Below are positions 1 to 42,336 of a stretch of DNA of 44,000 nt, one piece after another; the first letter of the stretch is position 1; each line of letters begins with the position of its first letter. The translations under genes and the position numbers were made by a program. The notes under the pieces were generated by a model that was not told the origin of the DNA, made no database searches, and saw nothing but the letters and a program-made list of their open reading frames with translations. This stretch comes from Basidiobolus ranarum (lineage: Eukaryota), in assembly GCA_040143965.1 (NCBI GenBank), contig JASJQH010000031.1, forward strand, positions 1-44,000, in the 5' to 3' direction.

Positions 1-379
1 GAGAAAACATGATTGCTCCTTGGCACATGGCGCATGGTTCACCAGTGGTATACATGGTTAACTCTTTCCAAAAGTCGTAGTTTATACCGTTACCAGGGTA
101 GATATCTGAGCAGTTATTGAATGCTCTGATCTCTCCATGCCATGTTGGGTTATGGTTACCCAGGTTGATTCCGTAACAAAGAACCTCGCCAGTTCTCTTA
201 CGAACGATAGAGGCACCAAAAGGAGCTTGGCGGCATTTTCCATGGCTAAGAGTGAAGTCAATCGTTTTTTGCATGTATTGGTAGTCACTTGCATCAGCCT
301 TCGCCCACTTGGCACTCGCCAGAGATAGATTACCAACAACCAACAAGATGGAAGCAATAGCGATGTTTAGAACTTTCAT
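1..379 (-). CDS. Secreted Zn-dependent cytidine/dCMP-deaminase-fold protein (nucleoside/nucleobase deaminase-like); 3' end runs off the window
   Basis: Manual translation from the ATG at 379 (not in the ORF track): MKVLNIAIASILLVVGNLSLASA-KWAKADASDYQYMQKTIDFTLSHGKCRQAPFGASIVRKRTGEVLCYGINLGNHNPTWHGEIRAFNNCSDIYPGNGINYDFWKELTMYTTGEPCAMCQGAIMFS. It carries the PFGA, HGE (HxE) and YTTGEPCAMC (PCxxC) motifs and a hydrophobic N-terminus ending in A-S-A. Confidence 0.9.
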   Translation of the reverse strand, partial: MKVLNIAIASILLVVGNLSLASAKWAKADASDYQYMQKTIDFTLSHGKCRQAPFGASIVRKRTGEVLCYGINLGNHNPTWHGEIRAFNNCSDIYPGNGINYDFWKELTMYTTGEPCAMCQGAIMFS

Positions 380-412
380 TTTCAAGATAACTAACACTCT
401 GAGTGAGTCCAC

Positions 413-420
413 TTTATATA
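413..420 (-). promoter_or_regulatory. Putative TATA box of the deaminase gene
   Basis: TATATAAA on the minus strand just upstream of the ATG at 379. Confidence 0.45.
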
Positions 421-1554
421 TCAATTGTTGAGTGTCGCCACATATCTTTCAAGTGAATTCCGCACAACCTCTCTTGGATATCATTTCTTAAGATAGCTAG
501 ATATTGTTACTCTTCAGCGTCATTCATACCGAGGAGAACGCTCAATTTTGGACAGAGATGCGCCAAGTAAACTAGTTTGATACGCTGAGTCTGGGAAGTT
601 CCTAGTTTTGGATGATGTCCCCCTTAACCTTGCACCTCTTTGATTCGCCCTACATGTGACCACACGGACAATATGTACAATGGTACATTTACTGTCTATA
701 TTCTAGGAAGTTATGGATGATGGGCATTTAGGAATCTCTAAGAAATACCTGATTAAAAACTGGATGCTATACATATATACACAACACCACTCGGTCTAGA
801 TAAGCAGATTATCGGTGGGATGATAACTTCGAAATGGACAGAATTTCACTTTATTAATAGTCATGAAAATGAAGGGTTTCTCTATATATCTCTGTAAGCA
901 GATCAGTGGGAACTATCGAATATGTTGTTTGTAATGTCAGCAATAACTTTAAGATTGGTAGTGTGTGAGTAGAACTTAATCTTGAAGATAAATGCTAGGG
1001 CAGCGTGCTTATACTTACAACATCTCGTTGAAAGTTGAATCATGCAGTGAATACAGAGATACTTAGGAGAAATGCTTGAAGAAAGGTGATTGGATCCAAC
1101 TTACTATGTATATATCCTAAAACCTCACAGCTGAGTGTTAAATGGTGGTTCAACTGAGTTGAGCTAGAATATAGCATCTTGTTACATAGCAAATAGAATA
1201 GAAATACTCCAGAAGTTGATTAGCATGGATGCATGAGTGACCACCTTCTCTTTCTCTGAATGATTCCAACCTTTAGTTATGCAATGTAACAAATCTATTC
1301 TTAGTTTGAGTTTGGTCACATAAGCGCTATATGCCAGAAGTTAGCTAGTTAGGACAGCAAATGTGAGTAAAGAGGAGCTTCCGATTAGTCACTATTTCAA
1401 ACCAACTTGGAACAAATACCTCAGAAATAGCTGAAACCCAGTTTAGGCATGTGACCGATAATAATTGGTTTAAATATTAAGGAGATTGCATAACATGGAT
1501 TGATTGAATGCAGTAACGCAATACAGATTTTCCGATGCTGCATGATCAAGTGAG

Positions 1555-1560
1555 TATAAA
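1555..1560 (+). promoter_or_regulatory. Putative TATA box of the SSI-like gene
   Basis: TATAAA about 70 nt upstream of the ATG at 1628. Confidence 0.5.
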
Positions 1561-1627
1561 TACTAGTCTATCCTTTATCTTAAATAGAAAACCCCCTCAA
1601 ATCTACTATAGAACTTAGACCATAGCA

Positions 1628-2035
1628 ATGAGATTATCTTATTCCCTTTTCACCACCTTTGCAGTTGTGTTCACTAGCTCGGTCACTATTGATGCTCAGG
1701 GAGTCTCAGCTAGCGTAGGAGGCAATCAGGCCCACTATCAGCTAGTTATTCATAAAGGGGAGGACACCACAGGGAAAGTTTTGTCTCAGGTCACGTTAAA
1801 TTGTCACCCTACTGGCGGCTCTCATCCTCATGCCAAGCAAGCGTGCTCTGCTCTTGATAAGGCAGAAGGAGACTTCGAAAAGCTACATAATTCGGGAGGG
1901 ATTTGTAATTTCATCTTCGATCCTGTCACTGTGACAGCTAAGGGCAGAGGGTTTGGGAAGAAAGTGAATTTTAAGAAGACATTTAGCAATTCCTGCGTAG
2001 CAGATGGTGAAACTGATGGAGTGTTCAAATTCTAG
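1628..2035 (+). CDS. Secreted Streptomyces subtilisin inhibitor (SSI, MEROPS I16) family protease inhibitor
   Basis: Intronless, 135 aa. Signal peptide, then LVIHKGE..VTLNCHPTGGSHPHAKQACSAL...GD...ICNFIFDPVTVTAKG...GKKVNFKKTFSNSC...GVFKF. This matches the SSI pattern (VTLxCxP..GxHP...AC, CxxxxDPV, FxNxC, C-terminal VFxF) with all four cysteines. Confidence 0.92.
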   Translation: MRLSYSLFTTFAVVFTSSVTIDAQGVSASVGGNQAHYQLVIHKGEDTTGKVLSQVTLNCHPTGGSHPHAKQACSALDKAEGDFEKLHNSGGICNFIFDPVTVTAKGRGFGKKVNFKKTFSNSCVADGETDGVFKF

Positions 2036-2344
2036 AATAGAATGTTTAGAATAGACTCCTTCACTCTTTCCAATGGTCGTTAATATATTCACATCACATT
2101 TAGAGCTCAAAGGGTGGGCATACGATCGGATAATAATAAACTCATTCTCATCCACTTTCTCACTTTCTCTTCCACACCTCATTTAAGGTTAAATTAGCTT
2201 CATTTAATAGCAGTCTGTATTCCGTAGCTGAGTGTAAATAAGGATTCATCTGTACGCCATGCTGCGGATTTGAAGATAAATCATTCGGAGATTTATAAAC
2301 CTCCAGCGGCTCACTTCAGACACTTACTATTTCTCTTTCACGTT

Positions 2345-3265
2345 ATGGCTAAAGTCTCTACTGAAGCTAGCACAGAAACTCTCGGTTTAGCCCGTATTTT
2401 ACTTTACGCCAAGGTTTATTTACTTCGAGGATTTGGCTTTCTCGTCTCTTACCTAGTGAAGTTTAATTCTAACGCGAAGCCCTCAGCAGTTGAGGATATA
2501 CCAACCACTCCACCTATACGTTGTGCCTTTTATTTTCCACCTTCTTATGACTCTGGTAACCCACAACAATATCCTGTTTACATAAACCTTCACGGTGGAG
2601 GTTTTATTGCTGGTTATGAAGATGATGACGCGGAATTTTGTGATTTCTTAGCAAAAGAAGTGGGCTGCATCGTCGTTTCCCCAGCATATCGCTTAGCTCC
2701 CGAATATCCCTTTCCCACAGGCCTGAATGATACCTATGCTGTTAGTCAGTGGATTATTCAGGAATACAAAACCACTAAGTTGGCGGTAGGTGGAACCAGT
2801 GCTGGAGGTCACCTGGCACTGGGACTCTCACAATTACTGATAAAATCGAATAAGGATGTGATCAAATCGGTTGTGAGTGTTTATTCACCGATGAATTTTA
2901 GTAGAACATCCGTAAATACTTTCAAAGAAAAAGAGCCTAAAATCCGGAATTTCTACCATGAATCCTACTTGCAGGCGACTCAAGGGGATGAGGAATCCCT
3001 TCAGAATCCTCTGCTTTCGGTGAATTACGCATCTCCCGATATGTATCCAGAGTCCATGGTCATTCTTGCCGCGAGAGATGATCCGAATATTGAGGACATC
3101 GAGATATTCATTCGAACGATTAAACCGCGAATTGGGAAAGTCTACGAAGGGGTATTCCATGGATGGTTACATGTTGCCGAAAGAATTATCGGGAAAGAAG
3201 CGACCCAAAAGAAATGGGATTGCTACCAGACGATAGCGGATGAGATGAAAGTGGTTTTTGCTTAG
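2345..3265 (+). CDS. Alpha/beta hydrolase, hormone-sensitive lipase (Abhydrolase_3) family esterase
   Basis: HGGG oxyanion motif, YRLAPEYPFP, GTSAGG nucleophile elbow, ARDD and FHGW for the Asp/His of the triad. The first ATG is at 2345 (the ORF-track start at 2270 is a TTG). TATAAA at 2294-2299. Intronless. Confidence 0.88.
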   Translation: MAKVSTEASTETLGLARILLYAKVYLLRGFGFLVSYLVKFNSNAKPSAVEDIPTTPPIRCAFYFPPSYDSGNPQQYPVYINLHGGGFIAGYEDDDAEFCDFLAKEVGCIVVSPAYRLAPEYPFPTGLNDTYAVSQWIIQEYKTTKLAVGGTSAGGHLALGLSQLLIKSNKDVIKSVVSVYSPMNFSRTSVNTFKEKEPKIRNFYHESYLQATQGDEESLQNPLLSVNYASPDMYPESMVILAARDDPNIEDIEIFIRTIKPRIGKVYEGVFHGWLHVAERIIGKEATQKKWDCYQTIADEMKVVFA

Positions 3266-3782: not shown

Positions 3783-4218
3783 TCCCATTGGAATATCTTT
3801 CAGGTGGCTTATGAGACTTGGACCATAATCACTACAGCTGTCATCATCATGATCATTACATCAGTCTTAGTACTGCTATAAATGGTAGAAAGTTCATGTG
3901 CGCTGTCAATCTACTCAACGATACTTGGGTAGCTCTGATTAGTATCCAAGTATTGGTAGTAAGAATGGCGCAAGTATACTTAAATCAGTTACACCAAGTT
4001 TGCAATGAGATAGAGGAAACGCTATACACAGCTATAAACGTTGTTCATAGATCTATCCAAAAATAACTGAATCCAAGTGTCAATATTCGAATATATTATT
4101 TTGCAACCTTTTGGCTAAATGCCACTTCACTCAAATTCTAGAGACTGTGGTGAGAGAGCACCATTGTAAAGATATAAAAATAGCCATGCAAAGACTTACC
4201 ATTCATCAACTATCAAAT

Positions 4219-5109
4219 ATGCATCTCCACTTTACTTCCATGGCTTTATTCGCTTTCTTGCACTCAGTGTTGGCACAGGAAGCTTAGTCCACTACACTGG
4301 CAGATATCAATACGGCGTGGGTTAGTCAATATGATCTCTCCGGTGTCCCCGATATCCCACCTAGACCCGTAGGCTCTGGTACTTGTCCTGACTCATTATG
4401 CGGACCTGAGGATTGTGAAAATTGTTGGGAGAGTTGTGGGAACTGCGCTCAACCTGATGACATCTACGGCTGTCAAGCTAGCCAGTGGGCATTGTCTTTT
4501 GATGATGGCCCATCACAATACACCTCTCAGCTACTTGACATTCTTGCAGCATCCAATGTCAAGGCTACATTCCAAATGATCGGTTCCAACGTAATTCAGT
4601 ATCCAGATGTAGTAAAAAAAGCATATGACCAAGGCCATCAAATTGCTTCTCATACATGGTCTCACCCACATCTGATGTCTCTCTCCAACGATCAGATTGT
4701 GGCGGAAGTAAGAGCTACAGAAGATGCTATTTTCAACATTACAGGTGTGAGACCGTCATTCATTCGACCTCCCTACGGTGAAGCAGATGATCGTGTAAAG
4801 GGCATCTTCAAAGCAATGGGCTACCACACTTTGTTGTGGAATATGGATACCTTGGATTGGGATATCTCCACGAAGAATGAGAGCCCCAGCCTTATTTTGA
4901 ATTCTTTTGAGACTGCCATCGCCAATGGAACCAACTTAAACCCCCATGGTGATCTGGGATTTATCTCATTACAACATGACATTTATATTGATACTGTGGA
5001 GCAAACACCCAATATAGCCCAACTCCTGGCTCAAAACAACTTTCATTTTGTTCTGGCTTACGAGTGTGTCAACCTTTCCCCTTATCAATCAACAAATCCG
5101 GTCAGTTAA
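4219..5109 (+). pseudogene. Secreted chitin/polysaccharide deacetylase (CE4, NodB domain) interrupted by one in-frame TAG at 4285-4287
   Basis: From ATG 4219: MHLHFTSMALFAFLHSVLAQEA*STTLADINTAWVSQYDLSGVPDIPPRPVGSGTCPDSLCGPEDCENCWESCGNCAQPDDIYGCQASQWALSFDDGP..., in the same frame as ORF 4492-5109. CE4 motifs SFDD, HTWSH, RPPYG, DTLDW and LQHD are all intact. TATAAA at 4173-4178. Confidence 0.8.
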
Positions 5110-8519: not shown

Positions 8520-10071
8520 ATGTCACTCTTGCAAAGTTGTATAAGAGGTTCTTTAAGGACGAAAACTCGGCTTAACGGAGCAAAAAGTACACCGATGACT
8601 ATTCTTCTGATCCAATTGACATTCCCCTCTGACTAACCACATTGTAACTCCTTAAAGATATCAGCGTCGGGGGTGGACTTTCTCGTCACTTCAGCACAGG
8701 AGTTCTAGATAAAAAGCAAGTGGAAACTCCCCTGAAGGAGCCAGTAAAACCGTAAGTCATTTAGCTGCTTATTTTCCAACCACGCCAGAGCGTTGCTAAA
8801 CCGAAGCCTTTCCTTCATAGAGCCACAGGTGTATTATTAATGAACATGGGTGGACCTGGCAAGTTATCCGAAGTAGAAGACTTCTTAACTCGCCTCTTTT
8901 CGGATTCCGATATCATCCCCATTCCTTTTCAATCGGTTCTAGCCCCCCTCATTGCCAAACGACGTACGCCCAAGATCGTTAACCAATACGATATCATTGG
9001 TGGTGGCTCACCCATTCGTAGTTGGACTGAAAAGCAAGGGAAACTTATGGAGAAATTATTGGATGAAACTTCCCCTCAAACAGGTATGAATTTATTTGAA
9101 ATATTTCCGTTTTCCAATTGAAAATATTCAATTCAATTTAATTCTTTCGAAAGCACCGCATAAATCTTACATCGGGTTTCGTTACGCTGCACCACTCACC
9201 GAGGAAGCATTAGAAGAGATTAAAAAAGATGGTGTGCGTAGGGTGGTGGCCTTCACTCAATACCCACAATATTCCTGTAGTACTACTGGTAGTAATCTCA
9301 ATGAATTGTATCGCAAGCTTAAAGTGATGGATAAAGAAGGAACCATCCAATGGAGCCTAATAGACAGATGGTCTACACACCCCAAATTGATCCAAGTATG
9401 TATGTGTATTTGAAGAGATTCTAGGAAGTGAATTGTAACCAATTCAACTAGGCATTTGCCAGCCGAGTAGAAGCGTCGTTAAAGGAATACAAAGAGGAGG
9501 AGCGTGACAAGGTGGTGATCTTATTCTCTGCCCACTCTCTGCCCATAGCTGCTATAAACCGTGGTGATCCATATTCCGCGGAAGTAGCAGCCACAGTGGA
9601 TCGGGTTATGGCTAGTCTAGGCTATAGTAATCCATATCGGTTAGTATGGCAATCGCAGGTTGGACCCTCACAATGGTTGGGCCCACAAACCAACGATGCA
9701 TTGAAAGGACTTGCCAAGCAAGGGCAAAAGAACGTATTACTCGTCCCAATCGCCTTTACATCTGACCACATCGAGACATTATATGAATTGGATTATGAAT
9801 ACTGCGAGGAAGCCAAAAAGGTATGTCATAAGTAAGAATGTAAGTGGGAGTGTACATGAACTAATCAAATCAATTGAAGCTTGGTATCACCGGTATCAAG
9901 AGAGCAGAATCTTTGAATGATTCTTCGTTTTTTATAGAAGCTATGGCGGATGCGGTGAAACAACACTTGGAAAGCAACTCGTTACATACCCCCCAGTTTC
10001 CACTTCGTTGTCCCGGTTGCAAAAATGAGACATGTAGTGAAATGCGAGAGTTTTTCATGAAACAAAAATAA
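8520..10071 (+). CDS. HEM15: Ferrochelatase, mitochondrial; about 6 exons
   Basis: [79 protein letters not shown] and C-terminal [10 protein letters not shown]. Confidence 0.96.
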
Positions 10072-10168: not shown

Positions 10169-11584
10169 TCAATAAATGTACGGAATGATCTTGTAAGGGA
10201 CTATTTCACAATATCTGTCCCAGTCCTTCTTGTACTTGAGTTGGCATTTATGGTCATCTCTAAACGATCTATGAATAAGCAACACTGCGAAGAAGATGGC
10301 ATAATAGTAAGTGAAGATGGTATCAAATCCAGTGGGCAAACACCAAGACAAAGACATGAGCCAATCGCCAAAATAGTTGATATGTCTAGATCTGCCCCAC
10401 CATCCCGAAATGATCAACTTGGATCCGGCTTCAGTGGTCATATACTTGAGATGCTGAACCTTGGGTGAGTCGGGGTTGGCACGGAATTCATTCTTTTCAT
10501 TGTTGGCGCTACGGAAGATGTAATATCCCAACAACTTGGTAGATACGATCAATGTACACCACAACATGCCAACTTCAAGCGGATGGCTGGCCAAATACCG
10601 TGCTTGAAGAGAGTAAGTAAAAGGCACCAATACTAGATCTCCAAAACTCAACATCCACCCAAACCCATCGGTAGTGATATCCATGGTAGTCAACACCTTT
10701 GTTTCGTTGTAGAGCGACTCACTGACATACCATCCTTCGAGAAGCAGTACCAAGACCATAGAATCAGTGACCTTTCCGTATGTTACGTATTGCTTCACAG
10801 CCATGGAGAAGTTCAAGAGCAACCATCCGATCAAACCAGGTCGAAGCTCACAGAAGTATTTAAGATCGAGCGAGCCGATACGGGGATTTAACTCACGGCC
10901 GATGAAAAACTATGGGATGTTAGTGAATTTTTCATTGATACTCCTAGTGAAGGAAAGCTACTTACGTCATAAAGAACGTTACCGGAATTGCCTCCAAGTG
11001 CCAACAACTTTCCTTCCCCGAAAGATGAGAGATAAAGGTAAAAAGCTTGAGTTGTGGCAACAATCACTGCCGCAGTGATGAGAGAGAGGAAATGTTCACT
11101 GACAAAAACGAAGGGTTCAGGTCCGTAAATAAACAGAGTGAGAATGACCGCTGCAAAAGTCACCAACAAAGACTTAAAAGCTAAAGCGAATAGAACAAAA
11201 ATAAACTAAGTTAATAAAGTAACTCAGTAAAGAGTAGATGAAGAACATACCATTGACTTTATACTTCAAAGTTTCTCCAGTTCTCAATTTAGTTCCCTCA
11301 CACTCCTCACATGGAAGTATGAAGTATAAAACTACGAGATAAGATACCCAACCGACATAAATATATAGAGTAGACAATTCGAAAAACGTCAATTTCTTCG
11401 CATATTGTAATAGATTTTCAATACTAAAATTCCAGAACCAGGAGGGTGGACAACCATCTTCATTGCACACCATGTATAAAAAGTAAACCAGAACATTACA
11501 AAGAGTAATGATCAAGATACTGCCCGGAGGCCCCATAAATTCGAAGGTTGTCGTCTTCGGGTTCAACTTTGTGTAAGAATACAT
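10169..11584 (-). CDS. ERG24: Sterol C-14 reductase (ERG4/ERG24 family); introns 11181-11250 and 10910-10965
   Basis: N-terminal LNPKTTTFEFMGPPG, GGNSGNVLYDFFIGRELNPR, LTTMDITTDGFGWMLSFGDL, GWWGRSRHINYFGDW and LLIHR..RDDHKC..KYKKDWDRYCEIVPYKIIPYIY. Confidence 0.92.
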
Positions 11585-11952
11585 GTTAAGCAGAATCCTA
11601 GAGCTAGGTCAGTGTAGACCGGTGATTATATATCAGCACTATCCTTGTCCCCTACGATCTAGTTCTATATCCGTCACGTGAAAACGGATATTTCGGATAT
11701 TGCGCTGATACAAATATATATTATAGCAGCTAAGATTTGTACTACATCAGGTAAATGGCCATGCATGGATGCAATTACAGCCAAGAAAAGCCGAAAGAGC
11801 GACGAGAATGTCACATCATTAACAGACGATAGAGCAACGAGAACAAAGCCACATTATTATGATTGATCAAGGTTTATTATGTTTATACAACCGTATATAT
11901 TAGAGTTATGTATGTAGAAATAGAAAGCAATCCGGATTATAAAAGTTCGCTA

Positions 11953-20566: not shown

Positions 20567-22863
20567 TTATTCGGTTTTCTCGATTGCTCTTGCTTTCCAG
20601 ATTGCATCAGAAACTTTCACTACATCGATCATCTGTTCAACATCGTGAACACGAAGAAGATTAGAACCACCTGCGATGGATGCAGAGCAGGCAGCAGCAG
20701 TTCCCCAGACCCTTTGCTTGGCATCAGATTTTTCAGTCACTTCACCGATGAAGCCCTTACGAGAAGGTCCAACTAGTGTGGGGAATCCATTTAAAGAGCT
20801 TTCTGCGCTAACAATATCAGGAAGGTGACGTAAAATCTGGAAGTTTTGTTCAGAGTTTTTGGCGAATCCAATTCCTGGGTCCAAGATGACGTTCCAGCGA
20901 TAAAGACCAGATTTAATACAGTTTCTAACAGTTTCGGTTAATTTTCTGACAATATCGGCAATAACATCATTGTTTTTGTACTCGGTTAAAGACTGCATGG
21001 TTTTTGTGTTGCCTCTCATATGCATCAAACAAACTGGTACGTTCAACTTGGCCATTATCTCGAACATTTTAGAATCCAATGTTCCTCCAGATACGTCGTT
21101 GATCAAGTCCGCTCCAGCTTCAATTGCTCTTTCAGCAACTTCAGCACGATATGTATCTACTGATATAGGAGCAGTGACTCCTTTTTCACGAAGAGCTTTG
21201 ATGACTGGTATCACTCTGTTAATCTCCTCTTCAATCGAAATTTCCTCAGCCCCTGGACGAGTAGACATTCCACCAATATCAATGATATCAGCGCCATCCT
21301 GAACTAGTTTCTCAGCGTGCGTTACGGCAGAATCAAGATTGCTATGTAATCCACCATCGCTGAAACTATCGGGTGTAACATTAAGGATACCCATGATGTA
21401 TGTTTTTTTGTTCCAATTCCAAAGATTATCTCCAATAGGCATGACTTTAAGAATCTCTTGTTCAATCTCTGGCTGAACGTAAACAAGTTGCGATAATAGC
21501 TGGCCACATGTACGGAATAGCTTGGGGTGCTCGAAATCGGAAGCAATGTCACACAATGGCTTTAGAACAAAGCCTCGCTCTTGAATTCGTGGGTGAGGGA
21601 TCTCTAAAGTGGGAGACTGGTACTCCATATTGTCATAGAATAAGATATCCAGATCGATAGGACGAGGTCCATTACGGACGGTTGGAACTCTACCAGTTTC
21701 CTTCTCAATAGTTTTGCACAGTGCCAGGAGGTCAATAGGGTTCAGCTTAGTATAGATCTAACAATGGTTTTTGATAACGGTAAGCAAGTACTAAAGGAAT
21801 CAATTGAAATTTGAACTTTGAACTTTGGTTATACCTTACAAGCGCTGTTGAGGAAAGGTGGTTGTTCGGTCAGATACATCGGAGGTGTCTCATACAAAAA
21901 CGAAGTATCCACAAGTCTACAATCGGGATGCTCGTGAAGGGTCTTTAGAGCGGATTTGATATTGGCCACACGGTCACCAAGATTTGTACCAATAGCAAGA
22001 ATACTGACATGCTCGTCTTTAGTAGGATAGACCTTGGTCATGATGTCCTCCGAACCAATATTAGTATTAAGTGCAGGTGGGAAATCGGATAGCTCACGAG
22101 TAACCTCAACACCAGCACCTTGAGCATAAATTAAAGCACTAGGTTTTTCCACTTTAACGGTGATTCTAGGAACATGGCATTTCTCGAGTGCGACTTTAGC
22201 AACTGAAGTGGATAAGGCCTCAACAGTTTTATAGTCTGATTCTTCCACGTGGGCTGTAATCACTCGAGCTATAGTAAGATAATTATGAGGCTTTACCACA
22301 CGGTCAATGTTAGTTCCCAGATACATAGGATCAGAGTGGATAGTTAAATTGAGTAAAACAGTCTGCTTATGCTCTCTTTCCCAAGGATTGCAGCCAATAA
22401 TAGCACTAAGTCTCAAATTCTTAACGAAAATAGTATCGTGAGGCAAGTTAAAGGCCTCATTTACTTGCACCTTCTCTTCTTCAGATATATCTTCAAAGTC
22501 TGTTTTGACTCTAGTGATCTCGACTCCAGCCGAGTCAGCATTAAGTAGAGCTCTAGGTTTCTCCACTTTGATGTTGGCTATGCCCGCGTTAAAATCATAT
22601 AAACAGACACGCGCGATACCGTTGGCAAAAGCCTCCATAGAGCGGTGCTTGGATTCCTTGGCGAATTTCTGAACACCCTTGCATAGATGGCCATAATGAA
22701 TGGAGGTAGTTAAGTTATCGTTATCACCAGCGTTCGAAACGTTCGTGAACAAGACTATGTTCAAAACAACCGGTTGAGGCTTCTCACGTTCCCATGAATC
22801 CACACCGAGCGTGGTTTGGACCATAAGATCCCTGAGGATAATCTTGTCTTTAAAACTGGTCAT
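20567..22863 (-). CDS. FOL1: Trifunctional folate synthesis protein (2x dihydroneopterin aldolase, HPPK, dihydropteroate synthase); intron 21758-21834
   Basis: Two DHNA repeats (LGVDSWEREKPQPV / IGCNPWEREHKQTV, each with KVEKP). HPPK motifs LAIGTNLGDR...YETPPMY...QPPFLN...NGPRPIDLDIL...IPHPRIQERGFVL. DHPS motifs MGILNVTPDSFSDGG...DIGGMSTRPG...LDPGIGF...SRKGF...LRVHDV. Confidence 0.96.
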
Positions 22864-37931: not shown

Positions 37932-40900
37932 ATGAATCCTAAACCTAGTTCCAACAAAGCCACACCACAGTTCACCTACGCTCAATTAGCACAGAAAGCT
38001 AAGAACACTGTTTCTACCCCACCATCTCAACCACAATCGGCTAAATCTCCCCCAACCAAATCTGAAAAGCCTGCTTCTCAACCTAAACAACAGCCAACAG
38101 TGCAATCTAATGGTAACAGCTCTCAATCTGCACCTGTTCCTAATGCTTGGGTAAAGAAACCTGTCATCTCTGCTTCTAAAGGTTCTGCGGTTCAATTTCC
38201 TGCTCGTCAACCATCTGTTGGAAGTGCTCCTGCAATCCAGTTTGGATCAATCAATCAAGCAGCACCTAATAATGGTTCTACAGAATCTACTACAGAGCCT
38301 ACTGACTCTGTTAAGGAACCTGTAAAAGAAAGTGCTCCAGCACAGCAAGAACAGCCTGCTGTCAGTAACAAGCCTACTAAACCCGTCTTTGGTTCTTCTG
38401 CTACCAAAAATACTGGAAATGCACCAGTTCGTAAGGCTCAGACTGAGGCTGCCCCTCAAACTAAGGTCACTCCAGCACCTGCTGTTGAGACACCAAAGTT
38501 GACACAACCATCTCCCCGTCCTCGTCCAGCTCAATCTCCCAGTGTTCCTCATGCTCCCCATCCCCATCAACCCCACCAATTCTCTCCTCGTCAAGGACAC
38601 CAACCACATCCTTCTAGTCAGCCTCATATTCGCCCCCATCACTATCCTAAATCTCCTATGCCAGTGAATGCGGGACCTGGCTCACCTTCCATGGCTACTA
38701 GCCCTGTTATACCAGCAGCTTTCTCTCCTCAACAAAGACCCAGAGATAAGCCTATGCACAGCCCAATTCAGCCTCCTATGTCACCTTCTATGGCACAGGT
38801 AATTTTTTATTCAACTAACATATTCGTCCAAAAGTTCATTAACTAATGAATTGGTTTTTTAGTACCCATATCAATATCCTGGTTATCAACCTCAATACGA
38901 CCCCAGTGGTCAACAAGGATTTTACCGTCCGGTATACTCTGTACCATACCCTGTTCCTGTTATGCCACCTGGTGTTCAACCTCGTTTAAACACTGGTGCT
39001 CCTACATTTGTTCCTCCTCAGTCTAACAGAGCCATCAGAATTGTTAATCCTAAGACCGGTGGTGTTGTTGACCTTAAGGGTTCACCCCCAGTTAGTAACA
39101 AGGAGTCACCAGTCTCTTCTCCATCTACCCCTAAAGCCCAATCCAAACCTGAAGAGGTGAAAGAAAAGGCTGAGGAAGTTTCTGAACCAAAGGAAAATTT
39201 CACTGTTCCCAAGAGTACTGAGTCAAAGGCAATCCCTATTGTTAATCCTGCTATGAAAGAACAAAATGAAGCACCTAAAGTTCCTGAAGTTGAAACTAAA
39301 CCTGAGGTAGAGGCACCTAAGGAGACCGAAGTTGCCCCTGTTCCTGAGGCTGCTCCTGAAGTTGCTCCTGTTCAAGAAGTTGTACCTGAGGTTGCTTCTG
39401 TCGAAGAACCTGTACAGGAGAAGGCCATTGAAACTGAAGAAGCTGTCAAGACTAGTGAGACCAAGGAGGTCATTGAAAATATCGAAGAGAAGCAAGTTGA
39501 GCCTGCCACTGTTGAAGAAGTAAATGTTGCCAAGGAAGAGCCCAAGGAACCCGTTGTTGAATCCTCTAAAGATCAACAAGAAGTTGTTCCTGAGGTTAAG
39601 CAAGAAGTTGAGGCTGAAATCCCACAAGTCGAAGAACCAAGTGTTTCTGAGACTCCTAAGGAAGATGAGGCTCAAGTTCCTGATACTACCAGCGAAGCTA
39701 AGGAGACTGTTCAACCTAAGAGTGAAGCCGTAGTTCCTGAAGCTGAGGCCGTTGAGGCCGAGACTAAGGAAGAATCCAAGCCTGAGGTAGCACCTGCTAG
39801 TGAAACCAAAGCAGAAGCTGATGCTCCAGTTCAATCCTCTCAAGTAGAAGATAACGCTAAGCCTGCTGAAGCAAGCAATGCTACTCCTGCCAGTACTCTT
39901 AACCCCGAGCAACTTAACCAAGTTACTTATCCTCCAAACATTAATGCTCCTAAGAGTTTGGCTGAATCCGGTCCTCTTAAGTATGATGCTTCATTCTTAC
40001 TTCAATTCAAGGATGTCTGCAAAGATAGACCTAATAATATGCCTACCCTTGAGTCTCTTGGTATTGAGGAAAATGTCCGTGATGACAAGAGATCTGCCAG
40101 TAGTGGTGGTAGACGTGGAGGACGTGGTGGAGGAAATAGTGGACCTAAAGGCGCTAATTCTTTCGCTGGAGATATGGGCTCATTCAAACATACACCAAAG
40201 ACCAGTGAGGAAAGATTTGCTGCCTCACAGGGTGCTGGAGGCCGCGGTGGTTTCAATCGTGGTTCTATGGGTGGTAGATCCGCTAGTGGTAGCAACAATA
40301 TGCCAGGTATGGGCAGTCGTGATGGCCGAGGATCTCGTTCAGGACGCCATAACAAGGGCAAGGGTGAGCGTCAACAACAAGGTGGACCTACCATTCCTCT
40401 TGATGAGGTCGTTCCTCTTGCTTTCTCTAAAGAGCGTTGGGTTCCTAACGCTATTGCTGCCCCATCAGCCGATGAAGAGAAGGCCAAGAAAGATATCCTC
40501 TGCCGTAAGGTTAATGGTCTCTTGAATAAATTGACTCTTGAGAAGTTCGAATCTATTTCCGACAAGATTACCGACTTTGCCAACAAAGCTACTGATGAAA
40601 AGAATGGATCTACTCTCCAAACTATCATTCAATTAGTCTTTGAGAAGGCTACTGATGAACCTAACTTCATTATGGTATATGCATCTCTTTGCAGAAAGAT
40701 GATGGATAACATTAGCGCTGACGTTATGGACGAAAGCATCAGAGGTAAAGATAACAAGCCTGTTGCTGGTGGTGCCTTATTCCGTAAATACCTTCTTAGC
40801 AGATGTCAAGAAGAGTTTGAAAAGGGTTGGAAGGTTAACTTGGCCGATGGTTCTTCTTTGGACAATCCTAACGCCCTTCTCACTGATGAATACTATGTCG

Positions 40901-42336
40901 CTGCCAAGGCTAAGCGTAGAGGTCTTGGTTTGATGGGATTCATTGGAGAACTCTTCAAGTTACAAATGTTAACTGAACGTATTATGCACGAGTGTATCAA
41001 ACGCCTTTTGAGTAACGTTCAAACCCCTGAGGAAGAAGAAACCGAAAGTTTGTGCAAGCTTATGACCACTGTTGGAAAGCAATTGGATCGTAAAGAAGCT
41101 AAGAATTATATGGATGCTTACTTCCAACGTATGAAGGAAATGTCCGTTAACAAGAAATTGAACAGTAGAATCAGATTCATGTTATTGGATGTTATCGATT
41201 TACGTTCTAACAAATGGGTTCCTCGTCGTGAGGTTGCCGGTCCTAAAACCATCTCCCAAATTCATCAAGATGCTCAAAAGCAAAAGGAAGAAACTGCTGA
41301 GATGCTTAAGAAAACTGCCAGCTCCGGTGGCAGAATGCCTTCTAATAACCAACAACTCAATCGTTCCAATTCTGAACGTCGTGATAGACGTGGTCCTCCT
41401 GGTCAACAAGGTCCTGATGGTTGGAACACTGTTGGAAATGCACCTTCTTCACGTAAAACTGGGGATTTGGCCGCCTTTGGTAACTTAACCCGCAGCAAGA
41501 GTGGGGCTAATGTTAGTCTTGGTCCTGGTGGAGGCGTTTTCGGTGCTCTCGGTGGTGGTAGCAAGGGTTGGAAACCAGCTGAAGCTAAGGGTAAGGAAGA
41601 ACCCAAGGCCAAGCCCCCATCTGGTAACATGTTCAGTGCTCTTATGTCATCTGAGAGCCCCAAGAAGGATTTCGAAAGAAAGCCATTGAACCTTCGTCCT
41701 AGAAGTGTCCAAACCCCTGAAGAGACTAAGCCTGAGGAGGTCAAACTCACCAAGGATGAGGCCGAAGCCAAGGTGAAGGCCATGGTTGCTGAGTACTTGT
41801 CTGTCCAGGATGTTCCTGAAGTAACAACATGTATCAAAGAACTTGGCTCTTCTGAATTCTACCCTACTGTCATTTCCGAGTTTATCAACGAAGCTATTGA
41901 CAAGAAGCAGAAGGATATTGATGCTGTGATCAAGTTGTTCAAGGTGTTAGCTACTTCTGATGTCATTACCCGCGACTTGTTTGTCGCAGGTATTCTTGAG
42001 GTAATGGAATATTTGGAAGATATTTCTATTGATGTTCCCCAAGCGTTCAGCCGTATGGGGGCCATGATGGCTGGAGCACCTATTGAGCTAGAGGACCTTC
42101 CCAAGATTCTCGAGAATCTATTGTCTCTCCCTGGAGCTATTCCTCCCTCCAACAAGGTATTGGGAGAGTATCTCAAGACACTTTCTGCTGACATCGGTGC
42201 TGAAGCACTCAAGGAGAAGTTCGAAAAGTCTGGATTGGAATGGACTCAGGTGCTACCTAAGGCACAACAATCCGAAGAAAAGATCGAGGAATTCTTGAAG
42301 AAATATGAGCTGGAGTTCTTACAGAAGACAAATTAA
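37932..42336 (+). CDS. eIF4G: Eukaryotic translation initiation factor 4G (MIF4G plus MA3); intron 38799-38862
   Basis: eIF4E-binding YDASFLL (YxxxxLPhi), an RGG region, MIF4G RKVNGLLNKLTLEKF...FEKATDEPNF...FIGELFKLQMLTERIMHECI...SRIRFMLLDVIDLR, and a C-terminal MA3-like KAMVAEYLSVQDVPEVTTCIKEL. Confidence 0.96.

Follow-up and report, generated by a model that had tools for sequence, protein, structure and literature searches.

Secreted inhibitors of the Streptomyces subtilisin inhibitor (SSI) type belong to the Pfam family PF00720, which corresponds to MEROPS family I16. Described members include SSI itself, from Streptomyces albogriseolus, sermetstatin (ScNPI) and SSTI; the quaternary structure of SSI is homodimeric. 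Similar genes are known from early-diverging fungi. Min et al. 2017 (PMC5238444) list 11 PF00720 genes in Choanephora cucurbitarum and three in Absidia glauca, mostly single-exon and mostly encoding secreted proteins, and read them as a transfer from Actinobacteria. Basidiobolus, an early-diverging, gut-associated fungus, is also known for heavy bacterial gene uptake: Tabima et al. 2020 (PMC7466969) count 806 horizontal gene transfer (HGT) candidates in B. meristosporus CBS 931.73, 127 of them with actinobacterial best hits, and describe the candidates as mostly intronless and compositionally indistinguishable from host genes. The present study deals with an open reading frame (ORF) at 1628..2035 in the first 44,000 nucleotides of contig JASJQH010000031.1 of Basidiobolus ranarum (assembly GCA_040143965.1); this whole stretch is referred to below as the window. 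An earlier note had described the ORF as an actinobacterial-type subtilisin inhibitor gene in a fungal chromosome. It is very probably an intact nuclear gene for a secreted SSI-family inhibitor, descended from an actinobacterial gene that was transferred into the Basidiobolus lineage.

The gene product, its fold and its predicted reactive-site loop

The coding sequence is a single uninterrupted frame of 135 aa running from ATG to TAG, intronless as claimed in the earlier note. The stop-to-stop frame around it begins at 1619 and offers no start before the ATG at 1628, and a longer N-terminus could only be gained via an upstream exon. A tblastn search of the window for a second SSI copy returned this gene alone below E 0.8. 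The N-terminus is hydrophobic and signal-like (Kyte-Doolittle means over 11 residues of 1.4–1.8 across residues 4–23), in agreement with the signal peptide proposed earlier, which is regarded here as putative. Its cleavage is possible after Ala23 or, alternatively, after Ser18. In contrast to the bacterial relatives, the signal region is not Ala-rich.

The assignment to the SSI family is supported at the level of both sequence and structure. The Pfam profile PF00720 matches residues 38–121 over profile positions 6–92 of 92 with 82.2 bits (E 2.7e-23; gathering cut-off 23.9 bits). A phmmer search of Protein Data Bank (PDB) sequences gave seven matches, all of them SSI-family inhibitors, among which sermetstatin (4hwx, E 1.2e-14), SSI (2sic, 1.2e-12) and SSTI (2e-12) can be mentioned. 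The AlphaFold2 (AF2) model built with a 125-row alignment reached a mean predicted local distance difference test score (pLDDT) of 87.7, being low in residues 1–33 (56–58), which lie outside the fold, and high in the domain of residues 34–135 (89–99; 96–99 in blocks of residues 41–135). A single-sequence model with a pLDDT of 36.5 was discarded. The accepted model agrees with the SSI fold, in which an antiparallel sheet is packed on two helices. Foldseek found 14 PDB matches at E <= 0.001, and all 12 of those listed are SSI-family chains; the best were 3ssi and 3sic_I (target-normalised TM-score, TMt, 0.89) and 2sic_I (0.87), with root-mean-square deviations of 1.4–1.5 Å, and the entries that follow the SSI chains are unrelated, with E > 0.05. 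The SSI identity reported in the earlier note is confirmed by profile, sequence and fold.

The residues characteristic of the family are preserved. The cysteine columns of the 125-row alignment are almost invariant (C59 125/125, C73 124/125, C93 125/125, C123 122/125), and the spacings in the window protein are 14 residues (C59–C73) and 30 residues (C93–C123); homology predicts that these pairs form two disulfides. The near-invariant L57, P61, G64, H66, A72, G81, P99, G106, N121 and F133 are all kept. The reactive site of SSI is presumably numbered Cys71-Pro-Met73-Val74, and because the HMMER alignment places C93–P99 opposite the reactive loop of SSI, Phe95 is predicted to be the P1 residue of the window protein. 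Residues in the P1 column vary among the 125 sequences: Met stands there in 52, Leu in 31, Ala in 8, Arg in 7, Phe in 6, Asp and Lys in 5 each, with others besides. Of the three closest relatives, the protein of Streptomyces sp. ISL-98 has Ile, and the two B. meristosporus proteins have Ala and Asp. Canonical inhibitors commonly vary in this way at the residue that sets specificity. Downstream, the column of F97 holds Tyr or Phe in 105 of 125 sequences and that of P99 holds Pro in 124.

The window protein is most likely a secreted, disulfide-braced serine protease inhibitor of the standard mechanism, as predicted from homology. Removal of the signal peptide would leave a domain of about 100 residues braced by the two disulfides, whose substrate-like loop C93-N-F95|I96-F-D-P99 would plug the catalytic site of a serine protease in the manner of standard-mechanism (Laskowski) inhibitors. 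Phe at P1 would favour enzymes with a large hydrophobic S1 pocket, namely subtilisin- or proteinase-K-like enzymes of family S8 and chymotrypsin-like enzymes of family S1. The inhibitor may guard the hyphae, and the proteins released by them, against foreign proteases met in gut, dung or soil; alternatively, it may restrain the fungus's own secreted subtilases. Secretion, disulfide formation, inhibition, specificity and biological target are all to be understood as predictions for this protein.

Relatives and phylogenetic position

Word-seeded searches of 5.8 billion proteins yielded three proteins from 10 candidates and then 14 from 1174. Apart from the window protein itself, the matches were the SSI family inhibitor of Streptomyces sp. 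ISL-98 (WP_214928061.1; 64%), two B. meristosporus CBS 931.73 proteins (46% and 55%), and actinobacterial and metagenomic proteins. An exhaustive search of representative proteins returned 917 proteins at E <= 1e-3, of which 360 remained at E <= 1e-10. The named relatives belong to Allostreptomyces, Salinactinospora, Halostreptopolyspora, Pseudonocardiaceae and Streptomyces, and the fungal ones to Gilbertella persicaria and Rhizopus stolonifer. Of 85 pattern matches in a collection of prokaryote genomes, 19 were confirmed as loci, all of them from Actinomycetes (Streptomyces 7, Nonomuraea 4, Saccharopolyspora 3, metagenome-assembled genomes (MAGs) 5). The nearest atlas clusters of the window protein are 98–100% bacterial, mainly from Actinomycetota.

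The ISL-98 protein is the closest known sequence, with 64% identity over the BLASTP alignment, 68% over the domain and a nearly identical C-terminal third. The domain of the window protein is 53% identical to each B. meristosporus paralogue, and the two paralogues are 50% identical to each other. With the ISL-98 protein as a query, an SSI match at E <= 1e-5 was found in 358 of 401 sampled Streptomyces genomes (G001–G401, one of them flagged unpublished), often with two to four matches per genome. Among the matches listed, none exceeded 42% identity (best E 2.6e-25), so the ISL-98 type is rare in Streptomyces and an outlier in the genus. A second bacterial-type sequence, 94% identical to that of ISL-98, occurs in another assembly. 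Two pattern scans of the prokaryote collection revealed no closer relative; the one made with P0002, aimed at the ISL-98 gene or a close bacterial relative, gave 190 pattern stretches and a metagenome contig scan with an alignment (A1) gave 491, with no relatives in either. The ISL-98 protein has an Ala-rich bacterial signal peptide, Ile at P1 and a high-GC host, none of which applies to the window protein.

A quick tree of 98 full-length rows placed the window protein, the ISL-98 protein and the two B. meristosporus proteins together (Shimodaira–Hasegawa-like approximate likelihood ratio test, SH-aLRT, 86). For the domain tree, 162 rows were aligned and 95 were kept, namely all labelled rows and the first 75 unlabelled representatives by id; only proteins of 95–200 aa were used, with the exception of P0163, whose two domains entered separately. 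The maximum likelihood (ML) tree of these 95 rows and 100 columns, computed under LG+C20+F+G4 with posterior mean site frequencies (PMSF), recovered the same four-member clade with an ultrafast bootstrap (UFBoot) of 100 and an SH-aLRT of 96. This clade lies within a 10-row clade (98/83) together with Salinactinospora, Halostreptopolyspora and four further rows. The Mucorales rows form a clade of their own (99/90) outside the 10-row clade. The terminal branch lengths are 0.12 for the window protein, 0.29 for ISL-98, and 0.47 and 0.51 for the B. meristosporus proteins.

A separate observation concerns P0163/P0015, a 523-aa protein from metagenome and Logan sequences with eukaryote-like composition, a signal-like N-terminus and two SSI domains. 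Its linkers and tail are long and rich in Lys, Glu and Ser, and its two SSI domains are each other's closest relatives (100/97). It may represent another eukaryotic uptake of the SSI family, in a tandem-domain form.

Origin of the gene

The SSI gene has a GC content of 0.453, with 0.441 at third codon positions (GC3). The flanks have GC contents of 0.387 and 0.372, and the window mean is 0.409. Nine other ORFs of the window range from 0.418 to 0.465 in GC and from 0.347 to 0.554 in GC3, and the SSI gene falls inside both ranges. Its relative synonymous codon usage (RSCU) correlates with that of these ORFs at 0.49, the values among the ORFs themselves being 0.42–0.86. The genes of the actinobacterial homologues, by contrast, have GC contents of 0.64–0.77 in 18 of the 19 loci, which bears out the host-like composition noticed earlier. 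The sole locus outside this range (L010), from the MAG 'Actinomycetes bacterium ELA143', holds a distant SSI-like gene with a GC content of 0.49 in a locus of 0.47.

Transfer from Actinomycetota is the best reading of these data, its direction and age being inferred. According to this reading, the gene would have passed from an actinobacterium into the Basidiobolus lineage, long enough ago for base composition and codon use to have become host-like and for the signal peptide to have become eukaryotic in type. Since B. meristosporus has two paralogues, a later duplication or divergence within the genus would have followed. The locus has the traits by which HGT candidates were recognised in Tabima et al. 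2020: its nearest relatives are bacterial, fungal genes stand on both sides, it is intronless and its composition is host-like. The ancient, ameliorated transfer proposed in the earlier note is upheld in that the gene sits among actinobacterial sequences.

Several observations weigh against this interpretation or limit it. The pairing of the window protein with ISL-98 has a support of just 78/21 in a tree of 100 columns, and since the tree is unrooted, the position within Actinomycetota rests on taxon distribution and not on a root. Approximately unbiased (AU) tests were performed under LG+G4 on 38 hand-picked rows, with a free search and two constrained ones. The free tree (lnL -6716.06, p-AU 0.695) was not significantly better than a tree with the three Basidiobolus proteins in one clade and ISL-98 outside it (lnL -6723.71, p-AU 0.356), nor than a tree uniting Basidiobolus, ISL-98 and Mucorales (lnL -6722.35, p-AU 0.367, delta lnL 6.3). 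Neither constraint is rejected, so there may have been one transfer or several, and in either direction relative to ISL-98. In addition, both word-seeded protein searches lacked a homologue from the B. ranarum proteome, and the SSI gene may not be universal in Basidiobolus or may be unannotated in B. ranarum. Lastly, Asn at P2 occurs in the window protein alone among 125 sequences, at a position in which Pro (50) and Thr (49) predominate, and the behaviour of the loop may be atypical.

The non-rejected clade with Mucorales would suit a single older acquisition by an early-diverging fungal ancestor, or spread from fungus to fungus, common to Basidiobolus and Mucorales, with numerous later losses and no transfer from actinobacteria specific to Basidiobolus. 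The SSI-family proteins of Gilbertella persicaria and Rhizopus stolonifer, and those that PMC5238444 attributes to Choanephora and Absidia, speak in its favour. Such a history nevertheless appears unlikely, as the Mucorales rows form their separate, well-supported clade while Basidiobolus and ISL-98 belong to the 10-row clade of Nocardiopsaceae type. Besides, no Mucorales row is among the top 15 by domain identity to the window protein, many actinobacterial rows are closer, and the distribution of SSI among fungi is very patchy. Another possibility is that the ISL-98 gene came from a Basidiobolus-like fungus by a return transfer, or that the window copy was acquired separately and more recently than the B. 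meristosporus copies, from an ISL-98-like donor. The higher domain identity to ISL-98 (68% against 53%), the pairing in the ML tree, the rarity of the ISL-98 type in Streptomyces and the empty prokaryote scans agree with this, as does the Lys-richness of the ISL-98 protein, whose K/(K+R) of 0.69 compares with a median of 0.27 across 172 collected proteins. Amino-acid composition was, however, rejected as non-diagnostic for the direction of transfer, because Nonomuraea, of high GC, has Lys-rich SSI proteins as well (K 13, R 6; gene GC 0.71). The pairing is weak and monophyly of Basidiobolus is not rejected; the ISL-98 signal peptide is of the typical Ala-rich actinobacterial kind; the 94%-identical sequence marks the ISL-98 type as part of an established lineage of bacteria; and the short branch of the window protein compared with those of B. 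meristosporus means that rate differences can explain the identities. This possibility is therefore rather doubtful, although it keeps a modest share of the probability. The ISL-98 type would be either a survivor of the donor lineage or a gene returned from the fungus.

Two further explanations question the gene itself. Bacterial contamination or a chimeric assembly join might be suspected, as the family is overwhelmingly actinobacterial and no more than 1.6 kb separate the gene from the left window end. Both the composition and the non-Ala-rich signal region make this very unlikely, to the point of being nearly negligible; moreover, the AT-rich flanks carry fungal genes on both sides (dCMP deaminase and alpha/beta-hydrolase), and the B. 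meristosporus homologues are found on contigs of 166 kb and 267 kb. A decaying or silent relic without present function would be compatible with the unique Asn at P2 and with the lack of a homologue in the annotated B. ranarum proteome as covered by the two word-seeded searches. It is improbable in view of the intact frame, the retention of all residues conserved across the family, the signal-like N-terminus re-fitted to a eukaryotic type, the high-confidence domain model and the short terminal branch. Actinobacterial transfer into the Basidiobolus lineage, leaving an intact gene, is thus preferred.

The most interesting residue of the analysis is the exclusive clade of Basidiobolus and ISL-98, with the question of the number and direction of transfers that it raises. 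Speculatively, and with a low probability, this clade might reflect repeated transfers from actinobacteria into Basidiobolus where both live together in gut or dung, or else the passage of a fungal gene back to Streptomyces. The P1 residues of the fungal copies (Phe, Ala and Asp) could in that case mark a small set of inhibitors, each suited to other proteases, such as host digestive chymotrypsin or elastase, or the bacterial subtilisins met during gut passage.

Genomic surroundings and comparison with described systems

The surroundings of the gene are fungal (Table 1). The eIF4G ORF of the window is 87% identical to a B. ranarum protein and at most about 50% identical to those of fungi other than Basidiobolus, which identifies the DNA of the window as that of a Basidiobolus species. 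Against another B. ranarum copy and against the copy of B. meristosporus the identity is 63–64%, values by which Basidiobolus seems to keep two old, divergent eIF4G paralogues. GC content is uniformly 36–46% along the window, and the domains recognised in its large ORFs are typically eukaryotic or fungal, with ERG4/ERG24, FolB-HPPK, DHPS, MIF4G/MA3/eIF4G1, PH, BTB, polysaccharide deacetylase and alpha/beta-hydrolase. Ferrochelatase and ERG4/ERG24 are each divided into ORF pieces that match successive parts of the profile, a pattern expected of introns, and a DAO-family oxidoreductase is likewise in pieces; the intron-containing fungal genes mentioned in the earlier note are accordingly present on the contig. 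The alpha/beta-hydrolase next to the SSI gene has eukaryotic nearest clusters (Ascomycota), which is to be taken as a lead only. Since its neighbours are fungal, the SSI gene is a lone insertion among fungal genes, outside any bacterial block. As for the TATA box proposed earlier, the motif does exist, but together with the possible polyadenylation signal it constitutes weak evidence, both being short and expected by chance in AT-rich DNA.

Table 1. Positions of the SSI gene, its parts and other features in the 44,000-nt window
Feature	Position	Strand	Basis or remark
SSI-family (PF00720) inhibitor precursor, intronless coding sequence, 135 aa, stop included	1628..2035	+	ORF, HMM, PDB matches, fold
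TATAAATA, TATA-like motif, 73 nt 5' of ATG	1555..1562	+	motif reading; weak
AATAAA, possible polyadenylation signal, 100 nt 3' of stop	2135..2140	+	motif reading; weak
Probable signal peptide, residues 1-23	1628..1696	+	hydropathy; hydrophobic core residues 7-21
Folded SSI domain, residues 34-135	1727..2032	+	AF2 model, Foldseek, alignment
Strands 35-43, 51-59, 100-108, 111-119; helices 69-78, 122-128	within SSI domain residues 34-135		model
Predicted reactive-site loop Cys93-Asn94-Phe95-Ile96-Phe97-Asp98-Pro99	1904..1924	+	HMMER alignment to 2sic_I, 3ssi
Phe95, predicted P1	1910-1912	+	aligned with P1 Met73 of Streptomyces subtilisin inhibitor
dCMP deaminase ORF, runs off left window end	2-448	-	flank of SSI gene
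Alpha/beta-hydrolase, adjoins SSI gene	2345-3262	+	Pfam domain
Short ORFs upstream of deacetylase ORF	3815-4287		may be deacetylase 5' exons
Polysaccharide (chitin-type) deacetylase ORF	4288-5109	+	Pfam E 3e-38; 2 kb downstream of SSI gene
Ferrochelatase	8765-9835	+	3 ORF pieces matching successive profile parts
ERG4/ERG24	10169-11608	-	3 ORF pieces matching successive profile parts
DHPS/Pterin_bind	20567-21628	-	folate synthesis
FolB x2 and HPPK	21829-22863	-	folate synthesis
Long ORF, 656 aa	24099-26069	-	no Pfam match at E <= 1e-5
Long ORF, 210 aa	35849-36481	+	no Pfam match at E <= 1e-5
Long ORF, 304 aa	37932-38846	+	no Pfam match at E <= 1e-5
eIF4G ORF	38962-42336	+	identity to Basidiobolus proteins

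Among the other genes of the window, the folate genes are arranged head to tail, and the ORFs within 20567-22863 resemble exons belonging to a single trifunctional folate-synthesis gene of fungal type.

The SSI gene described in the earlier note is real and was correctly read, but it does not stand alone in fungi. Two paralogues are annotated in B. meristosporus, and the transfer into Mucorales was published in 2017, so the novelty is much lower than was assumed. SSI transfer into early-diverging fungi, as described in PMC5238444, is already known, B. meristosporus homologues are annotated, and current views are not overturned. A literature search for work joining Basidiobolus with a subtilisin inhibitor found none, and the candidate lists of PMC7466969 may include the B. 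meristosporus SSI genes; for PF00720 in fungi, the Choanephora work was the only one found. The terms 'subtilisin', 'SSI' and 'PF00720' are absent from the main text and one supplement of PMC11291939, and PMC8778642 has no mention either. The 'subtilisin inhibitor' passage of PMC4039746 refers to an unrelated Sclerotinia candidate.

The locus is a well-anchored addition to the bacterial genes domesticated by Basidiobolus, as an intact gene with fungal flanks, host-like composition and membership of a supported clade. At least two lineages of early-diverging fungi appear to have acquired the actinobacterial SSI family. The C-terminal third of the window protein, nearly identical to that of a rare Streptomyces protein, points to a concrete donor-type lineage for study, and with its uncommon Asn-Phe pair at P2-P1 this small protein is also a candidate inhibitor that is easy to express.

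Like the window protein, the Mucorales SSI-like proteins, which include P0152, P0294 and P0128 of Gilbertella persicaria and Rhizopus stolonifer besides those in PMC5238444, are short (103–138 aa) PF00720 proteins of early-diverging fungi. They belong to another fungal phylum and to a separate clade, yet a common origin is not rejected; the single copy in the Basidiobolus window differs from the 11-gene expansion given there for Choanephora. The B. meristosporus proteins ORX98491.1 and ORY07640.1 ('subtilisin inhibitor'; 132 and 125 aa) share genus and clade with the window protein and have signal-like N-termini; they differ from it in the P1 residue and have only 53% domain identity to it, and are regarded as homologues and at most candidate orthologues. 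SSI (2sic, 3ssi), sermetstatin (4hwx) and SSTI (6i0i) are of the same Pfam family and fold, with 33–35% identity and TMt of 0.75–0.89, and they share with the window protein four equivalent cysteines, a reactive loop after the third cysteine and the aromatic-Asp-Pro sequence downstream. Unlike SSI, the window protein is encoded by a eukaryotic gene of about 45% GC with a putative signal peptide of eukaryotic type, and its predicted reactive site has Phe instead of Met at P1 and Asn instead of Pro or Thr at P2.

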